From Amoebidium appalachense (Eukaryota > Protista > Ichthyosporea), in NCBI GenBank assembly GCA_963693365.1, contig CAVNZM010000008.1, positions 5,774,613-5,838,612 on the forward strand: a stretch of 64,000 nucleotides of DNA, read 5' to 3'. Every line of letters starts with the position of its first letter. Positions within the stretch are counted from its first letter, which is position 1. The notes beneath the pieces are model-generated. The model saw nothing but the letters and a program-made list of their open reading frames with translations. It was not told the origin of the DNA and ran no database searches. Both the position numbers and the translations under genes were made by a program. Positions 39,183 through 39,803 of the stretch are shown piece after piece.

Positions 39183-39479
39183 GGTTAAGATCTCGCAGGC
39201 CACCAGCCGATCATGATCTAATTCATGCGATCGGACTGGATAACGATACCATCTTCCAACATCCCCACTCAGGACGAATCGCAGAATCAGGTTAGGGTGG
39301 ACTGCCCCCTCAGTCCCCACTGAACCTCTGTTCATGCTACCATTTTGGATTTTGTCCTGGTGCAGAGACTAGCGATCTTGCTAGCCTTGAGATCACAACC
39401 TAACCACTGCCGATGGTTGTGATGACGCCAGTAAAGGCGTGCTGGCTTTTACCCCAGCGAGAAGAGGATGAGAAAAAGA

Positions 39480-39552
39480 TGATCCCGACGGGATTTGAAC
39501 CCGCAACCCCTCTATCTCCGGTCGAGTGCTCTACCAACTGAGCTACGAGATC
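39480..39552 (-). tRNA. tRNA-like gene in the 5' LTR (anticodon GGA)
   Basis: Same 73-nt cloverleaf, with B box GGTTCAAATCCC and a T5 terminator downstream. Confidence 0.75.
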
Positions 39553-39803
39553 GGTTAAGATCTCGCAGGCCACCAGCCGATCATGATCTAATTCATGCGA
39601 TCGGACTGGATAACGATACCATCTTCCAACACTACGTTAAACTTAGCCATTGTGTGGTGTGTGCCCGAACTCGTGTGGTTGTGTTTATGTTTTTTTTTTT
39701 TTTTTTTTTTTTTGTTGTGTGTTTGAGGTGTAGCAACAGCCCAGAAGGAACTGTCACCGCGTTACCCTAGTGCGAAAAACCGCACTAAAAGAAAGGTGTA
39801 GCT

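Follow-up and report, generated by a model that had tools for sequence, protein, structure and literature searches.

A leader complementary to the 5' acceptor strand of the LTR-borne tRNA-like sequence of a probable new Helenus TRIM family

Helenus TRIMs (TRIMp3; Kojima 2024, PMC10886601) were defined from sequence as elements that carry a tRNA-like sequence in each LTR. Since their description in 2024 they have been known from sequence, their tRNA part being regarded as a promoter in the DNA, and Pol III transcription from the LTR is unproven for the published families too (PMC10886601, whose text contains neither 'hairpin' nor 'RNase P'). In most of the Data S1 LTRs that were read, a short T-run usually lies within about 10 nt after the tRNA-like sequence (PMC10886601); because such runs are common behind published tRNA-like sequences, read-through of the terminator is a question for the whole Helenus family. 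The description thus leaves to be explained how a Pol III transcript would clear the terminator of the first LTR and escape RNase P and RNase Z at its two tRNA-like ends. Like the TRIM described here, tRNA-derived SINEs keep the tRNA as an internal promoter, and their RNA is often said to fold unlike a cloverleaf; SINEs, however, use the enzymes of LINEs and are without LTRs, PBS and PPT, all of which the TRIM possesses. Retrozymes carry a hammerhead ribozyme in the LTR, and circularly permuted tRNAs have the T arm directly upstream of the 3' acceptor strand. The Cassandra TRIM resembles the present element in having a Pol III small-RNA promoter in each LTR, a strongly folded RNA and read-through of the LTR (according to the accessible part of PMC7215508); Cassandra is derived from 5S, however, and is without the tRNA-processing problem, whereas the promoter here is tRNA-like. 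A further likeness is to synthetic RNase P riboswitches, in which a 5'-leader hairpin inhibits RNase P (accessible parts of PMC8925977 and PMC7897497), and in designed constructs a hairpin-sequestered 5' leader controls the eukaryotic enzyme (PMC8925977, same part). Those systems are designed, respond to a ligand and tie up the leader; in the present TRIM there is no ligand, and it is the acceptor strand that the leader invades.

The window analyzed here (the whole stretch of 64 kb) contains, on its minus strand, a TRIM of 659 bp in total that consists of two LTRs of 289 bp each, 287 of 289 positions being identical (two differences), and an internal region of 81 bp:

39343..39631, minus strand: 5' LTR, 289 bp, TG...AA (LTR comparison)
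38973..39261, minus strand: 3' LTR, 289 bp (LTR comparison)
39262..39342, minus strand: internal region, 81 bp, non-coding, starting with TGGTAGCA and ending with a purine tract
39335..39342, minus strand: primer-binding site TGGTAGCA, 8 nt, its start common to several fungal Helenus
39262..39270, minus strand: polypurine tract, with the LTR start 18/18 identical to the Copia PPT/LTR junction at 59150-59167
39632..39636, minus strand: left copy of the target-site duplication, CGTAG, 5 bp (2 further bases ambiguous)
38968..38972, minus strand: target-site duplication, right copy
38933..38967, minus strand: 35-bp tandem duplication spanning the 3' junction (a skip of 699 = 659 + 5 + 35)

The PBS TGGTAGCA presumably matches the 3' end of initiator tRNA-Met. 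The features by which Helenus was defined are found at this locus: a length below 1000 bp with two LTRs; an LTR containing a tRNA-like sequence, in which box A (TRGCY, YGG) and box B (GGTTC) are present; a PBS (8 nt) and a PPT in the internal region; a TSD within the 4-6 bp range, CGTAG on both sides; and a non-coding sequence (no Pfam match for the three frames of at least 70 aa that overlap the TRIM) dispersed in multiple copies. Fungal and plant Helenus are likewise shorter than 1 kb, with boxes A and B, PBS, PPT, 5-bp TSD and ties to Copia; Helenus elements also have an anticodon at odds with the tRNA body, as here, and the PBS start is common to Helenus-1_AmAr, 1_CCin and 10_CroRib in the part of the published set consulted. 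The present element differs from published Helenus in its long U5 with four hairpins, and its LTR ends in AA as against TA or GA in some published families. Exact matching of five words against Data S1 of PMC10886601 gave no hit, a comparison that could miss distant similarity. We are highly confident that the element is a Helenus-kind TRIM, likely transcribed by Pol III, and as judged from its sequence it is a new family of this known kind. As a Cassandra or Ajax element it was rejected (no 5S rRNA match in an Rfam scan of 36000-44500 to E 0.5), as was the retrozyme assignment (no hammerhead match in the Rfam scan of 36000-44500).

Sequencing-run contigs join 38932 to 39632 in 4/4 runs examined, the skip of 699 being the sum of 659, 5 and 35. 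The target is apparently itself a repeat, and therefore this TRIM-less junction is an uninterrupted form and not necessarily an empty allele; we infer that the 35-bp tandem duplication post-dates the insertion. The TRIM is located a few codons past the ATG of an apparent multi-copy sequence (39651 to 38481, minus strand), in which the frame beyond the insertion runs for 150 codons and has no Pfam match. LTR ends with several different flanks, marking other insertion sites, occur in runs X4, X10 and X11, and the TRIM is hence a dispersed multi-copy family. Also in run X4, a loose end at 39305 belongs to a 996-nt contig that shares the LTR end and the PBS, follows the internal region for 38 nt and then passes into other sequence, which begins with a box A-like motif in the 30 letters read; this contig is perhaps a longer relative or the helper. 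A Copia helper likely moved the TRIM: one is suggested by the shared 18/18 PPT/LTR junction, and none was found in the 64-kb window, where the PBS of both Copia elements differs from that of the TRIM.

Family variants were collected from 8 sequencing runs among the 20 containing the stretch (24 listed, with 4 organism codes). None of the listed runs with the stretch is labelled as RNA, although two of those examined may be. The family is nearly invariant across these 8 runs, with 5 variant sites, a count that omits flank changes and a single difference confined to this 3' LTR, and covariation among its copies is consequently uninformative. Two of the variants lie in the loop of the upstream hairpin described below and one each in an internal loop, the variable loop and the leader; the minor leader variant replaces A-U by G-U and keeps the pairing. 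This placement fits selection on structure, on too few changes for a test.

Each LTR contains a tRNA-like sequence and putative Pol III signals:

39480..39552, minus strand: tRNA-like sequence, 5' LTR copy, anticodon GGA (ARAGORN; Rfam 57.4 bits)
39110..39182, minus strand: tRNA-like sequence, 3' LTR copy (ARAGORN, Rfam)
39534..39545, minus strand: box A (from sequence; motif as in PMC10886601)
39491..39501, minus strand: box B (from sequence; motif as in PMC10886601)
39473..39477 (copy 39103-39107), minus strand: T5 run with CT behind it, putatively a leaky terminator for Pol III (from sequence)
39556..39566, minus strand: candidate Pol III starts at -14 (39566), -12 (39564) and -4 (39556), predicted from sequence

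The acceptor, D and T stems of the tRNA-like sequence are intact and its anticodon arm is broken, with a G-A mismatch in the stem and C33. The predicted pairing probability of this arm is at most 0.03, and the arm never forms in folds of RNA ending at T5. The Ser anticodon sits on a short variable loop, so that, together with C33 and the mismatch, no working tRNA-Ser is expected; U33, a paired anticodon stem and the long variable arm are all missing, and a functional tRNA-Ser gene was rejected on these grounds. T5 is the sole run of at least four T in the 370-nt unit, and a following CT weakens a T5 terminator. In yeast, T5 gives intermediate Pol III release, and an RNA stem next to a weak terminator, for example an acceptor stem, strengthens termination (both from the accessible part of PMC9278858). 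Pyrimidine-purine steps occur at -4, -12, -14 and -19 relative to the tRNA-like sequence; the usual Pol III start 18-20 nt before box A (PMC4937561, consulted in part) corresponds to -11 to -13 here, a general distance from which the host's may differ.

A metagenome scan with a word from the tRNA part returned 119 loci, which read as tRNA genes, nearly all with anticodon TTT, and which served as control. The first 25 nt of the tRNA-like sequence equal those of these metagenome tRNA genes, an agreement biased by the query, and the best blastn matches listed, which were to metagenome loci, covered the tRNA part only. The last 16 nt of the tRNA-like sequence agree at 14/16 positions with the end of the honeybee tRNA-Trp in Fig. 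S2 of PMC10886601 (a source consulted in part). One metagenome locus (L048:801-1116) has the tRNA 5' part four times in tandem, 97 bp apart, with three hybrid copies and one complete, and looks like a repeated integration site.

The original prediction of a built-in anti-tRNA leader agrees with the sequence: the minus strand has CTGCGAGATC-TTAACC-GATCTCGTAG at 39568-39543 and the identical stretch again 370 bp away, at 39198-39173, and the 10-nt leader pairs with tRNA positions +1 to +10 in 10 bp, one of them G-U, in the sequence and in the predicted fold. Around it, folding predicts further hairpins:

39543..39568, minus strand: leader hairpin, 10 bp, leader arm 39568-39559 against tRNA +1 to +10 (predicted fold)
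39173..39198, minus strand: leader hairpin, 3' LTR copy (identical sequence)
39573..39609, minus strand: upstream (U3) hairpin (predicted fold)
39367..39458, minus strand: four adjacent hairpins past the terminator, at 39458-39441, 39440-39425, 39423-39392 and 39386-39367 (predicted fold)

In isolation the leader hairpin folds at -14.4 kcal/mol. Shuffling the upstream LTR produced a leader helix of at least 10 bp in 21 of 5000 trials, and 0/100 natural tRNA loci sharing the same first 25 nt have one; helices of at least 6 bp were common in these controls (39% of shuffles and 21/100 natural tRNA loci). Viral scans gave two matches to the hairpin word, in which similarity ends at the 18 nt, and one match to the PPT word, and a prokaryote genome scan gave none. 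No prior description of an anti-acceptor leader was found in the literature searched (most subscription papers lay outside its reach), and the hairpin appears to be previously undescribed. By eye, neither a T arm nor a T loop can be made out in the 17 nt preceding the leader, and a circularly permuted tRNA was rejected.

All fold probabilities are predictions at 37 C for the 5' LTR copy in RNA ending at T5 unless stated otherwise, from models that omit tertiary contacts, modifications and proteins. In these folds the leader hairpin and the acceptor stem are mutually exclusive, as had been proposed. Folding with and without the leader gives an acceptor-stem probability of 0.59-0.85 with 0-9 nt of leader, 0.13-0.17 with 10-11 nt and at most 0.008 with 12 nt or more; given the sharp change between 0-9 and at least 12 nt, the start site would decide the fold. 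Once the leader is present the hairpin is ahead of the cloverleaf by 3-10 kcal/mol, a balance that depends on the start site. It had also been supposed that Pol III transcripts start at the tRNA and fold normally, and neither part holds up well. The usual start falls at -11 to -13 (accessible part of PMC4937561) and there is a pyrimidine-purine step at -12, so that the leader is likely present in Pol III transcripts as well and the contrast between leaderless and leader-bearing RNA becomes doubtful; the anticodon arm, with its mismatch and C33, is predicted to pair at no more than 0.03. RNA growing from -12 has a leader helix of 0.81-1.0 at all nine lengths tried, and in full-length RNA from -12 the hairpin dominates in both copies; at the 3' copy the predicted values are 0.97-1.0 for the leader helix and 0.000 for the acceptor stem, and no upstream strand is predicted that could free this copy. 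In read-through RNA the acceptor stem of the 5' copy stays at or below 0.009 even with zero leader. Shuffled leaders took the acceptor stem below 0.05 in about half of 200 trials, and 2/200 shuffles were as strong as the real leader at -16 and 56/200 at -12; in its full length the leader thus stands out for its strength, but with a -12 start it does not surpass shuffled ones. Both the loss of the stem in leaderless read-through RNA and its suppression by shuffled leaders weaken the need for this particular leader. Of the proposed conformational switch, therefore, the mutually exclusive folds stand in silico, while both LTR copies are likely to be masked constantly and the cloverleaf is marginal.

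Over the whole LTR, all five other hairpins named in the original prediction are present in the minimum-energy fold. The LTR had been called almost fully structured; it does fold beyond its shuffles, but only 66% of its bases are paired. Against dinucleotide shuffles the fold has z = -4.35 (0/200), and z = -5.18 (0/60) in a second shuffle set; the part 3' of the tRNA, folded alone, has z = -4.01 (0/200 shuffles). Neither the 63 nt upstream of the leader (z -1.29) nor the TRIM internal region (z -0.31) is significant alone, and the antisense strand of the LTR has the same z as the sense strand. Folding is far weaker in eight segments taken from the window's other LTRs (z -0.18 to -2.68), and z is about -2 in both flanks. 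Long-range pairing of the pyrimidines that follow the tRNA with PPT/U3 (-21.5 kcal/mol) was set aside as weak, since 40/1000 shuffles reach the same. The last LTR hairpin (39386-39367), here downstream of the tRNA, has a CTAGC...GCTAG core; in this it resembles a hairpin that fish, bivalve and nemertean Helenus have upstream of the tRNA, a likeness that may be chance.

The published Helenus LTRs were compared by eye and with no computed control, in the consulted part of the PMC10886601 supplement. By eye, the leader pairs with the 5' acceptor strand over at least 6 contiguous positions in 0/26 rust-fungus LTRs (supplement part 1), and many of the 26 retain the acceptor stem; the leader hairpin is thus not required for the Helenus kind. 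Among wasp LTRs starting tgtcac, 14/19 have by eye a hairpin of at least 9 pairs that takes at least 4 bases of the 5' acceptor strand, 1/19 has 6 pairs and 4/19 have none. The leader, 5' and 3' strands change together in these wasps (ctac/gtag/ctac in 3_NVit, tcgc/gcga/tcgc in 1_ToGe), and in 3_MusRap the leader matches the acceptor change; in the other wasp clade some members have the hairpin and others do not. Amylostereum Helenus-1_AmAr, with a similar PBS, shows by eye 8 pairs plus a bulge over +1 to +8, its acceptor stem mostly kept, and no such hairpin is seen by eye in the Selaginella and 1_CCin Helenus. In 12/14 fish LTRs a hairpin of 4-6 pairs, by eye, ends at box A, such short helices being weak evidence, and in two carps an A-U to U-A change is matched in the competing upstream arm as well; short hairpins over the 5' acceptor strand occur in fish and bivalves, several without an evident acceptor stem. 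Published families are related within each clade, and hence the independent cases are few. Leader-type hairpins probably recur in other Helenus lineages, the wasp and fish families may lend outside support to two maintained folds, and in the published material consulted the same sort of hairpin seems to have gone unremarked in wasps, in fish and in one fungal consensus.

We tentatively favor, as a reading still a little short of probable, that the leader hairpin is a standing mask of the tRNA fold at both RNA ends, acting against RNase P/Z cleavage and early termination without flipping. On this model boxes A and B would direct a Pol III start near -12, and the hairpin would fold first, ahead of the synthesis of the 3' acceptor strand. 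Terminators adjacent to an acceptor stem are stronger in yeast (PMC9278858, in the part consulted), and so with the acceptor stem masked the T5 beside it would be left leaky and some polymerases would continue as far as the second LTR, by way of U5, PBS, PPT and U3. The tRNA-like stretch could then serve as the terminal repeat (R) for strand transfer, with masking preventing the loss of R to RNase Z at the 5' copy and to RNase P at the 3' copy; if the emerging 5' acceptor strand is taken up by the hairpin, read-through and the protection of R would both be served, at both ends. Such a model would give the Helenus question a concrete answer in a young, uniform TRIM family, one testable on a 100-nt RNA. 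The main fact left unexplained is the intact acceptor stem, which under permanent masking would be expected to decay; this keeps the switch reading alive. In a two-state element the choice of start (-4 versus -12/-14) or the position of the LTR would decide whether the product is a short tRNA-like RNA, terminated and processed, or a genomic RNA that is masked and comes from read-through; this is the original prediction with the choice of start as its trigger. The sharp predicted change between -9 and -12, with candidate starts on either side, fits this, as do the retention of acceptor, D and T stems beside a decayed anticodon arm, a pattern also seen in the published families consulted, and the matched changes in three strands seen by eye in wasp (NVit versus ToGe; 3_MusRap) and carp families. 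We consider it unlikely all the same, as no upstream sequence frees the 3' copy (leader helix 0.97-1.0), there is no known use for the short RNA, and the nearly invariant family offers no covariation. We are similarly doubtful of its extension, in which the anti-acceptor leader would have evolved repeatedly in tRNA-promoter retrotransposons of unrelated hosts as a natural attenuator, with start choice or LTR position setting the tRNA fold and hence either the stop at the weak T-run and processing or read-through and an uncleaved genome; this attenuator, if true, would be a natural eukaryotic switch for Pol III antitermination and RNase P evasion.

The overlap with the acceptor might also have no role of its own, the leader being one hairpin of a compact LTR (selected or mutationally prone) that arose as a short inverted duplication; this has a minor but serious chance of being right, and if so the finding would amount to one more Helenus family. 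The four post-tRNA hairpins are equally significant without overlapping the tRNA (z -4.01), the antisense z equals the sense z, and the leader is the reverse complement of +1 to +10 and not a copy of the 3' acceptor strand; the acceptor stem is marginal anyway, the rust families read by eye have no such leader, and Cassandra RNA is reported to be highly folded too (PMC7215508, accessible part). Against a general tendency to compact folding stand the eight other LTR segments of the window, far less folded at z -0.18 to -2.68, and the wasp families consulted, which by eye keep the overlap through joint changes in the leader, 5' and 3' strands. It is improbable that the cloverleaf itself is used, with an RNase P cut at the 3' LTR copy making the 3' end of the genomic RNA, an R of about 12-16 nt, and a hairpin that protects the 5' end only. 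RNase P reads the acceptor and the T arm, and this use would explain why both were kept while the anticodon arm was lost; it is the 3' copy, however, that is most firmly masked (predicted acceptor 0.000). The resulting R would be comparable to that of Cassandra, 18 nt as stated in PMC10886601. Both copies are called as tRNAs by ARAGORN and Rfam, but a local duplication that holds two functional tRNA-Ser genes is scarcely conceivable in view of C33, the G-A mismatch and the short variable loop, and of the LTRs, PBS, PPT, TSD and many insertion sites; Helenus-type elements inflate tRNA gene counts.

The window also contains other mobile elements. Two young Copia elements, at 44024-49904 (minus strand) and 52925-about 60142 (plus strand), have LTRs that are 100% and 98% identical, 5-bp TSDs, PBSs of the half-tRNA type and a pol region over two overlapping frames; the best database hits of their two proteins are at 36% and 40% identity, the named hits being to plants and green algae. 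Long inverted repeats at 39804-40529 and 43236-43950 (about 730 bp, 94%) surround a 2.7-kb interior, and the element they delimit (39804-43950) is likely of the DNA transposon type. A search of 128 frames against Pfam gave transposon or weak hits only. A gag/protease-like remnant lies at 18942-21621 (minus strand) and a Tc5-type transposase DNA-binding domain at 62009-62707 (minus strand), and the open frames at 36149-36862 and 12790-13665 (both plus strand) have no significant family match; for one further ORF of the window a database search found no homolog. A second TRIM, at about 60932-62017 (plus strand), has LTRs of about 390 bp and an internal region of about 300 bp and is without a tRNA; the folding of its LTR is unremarkable (z about -1.3), and its PBS, PPT and LTR start resemble those of the first Copia element.
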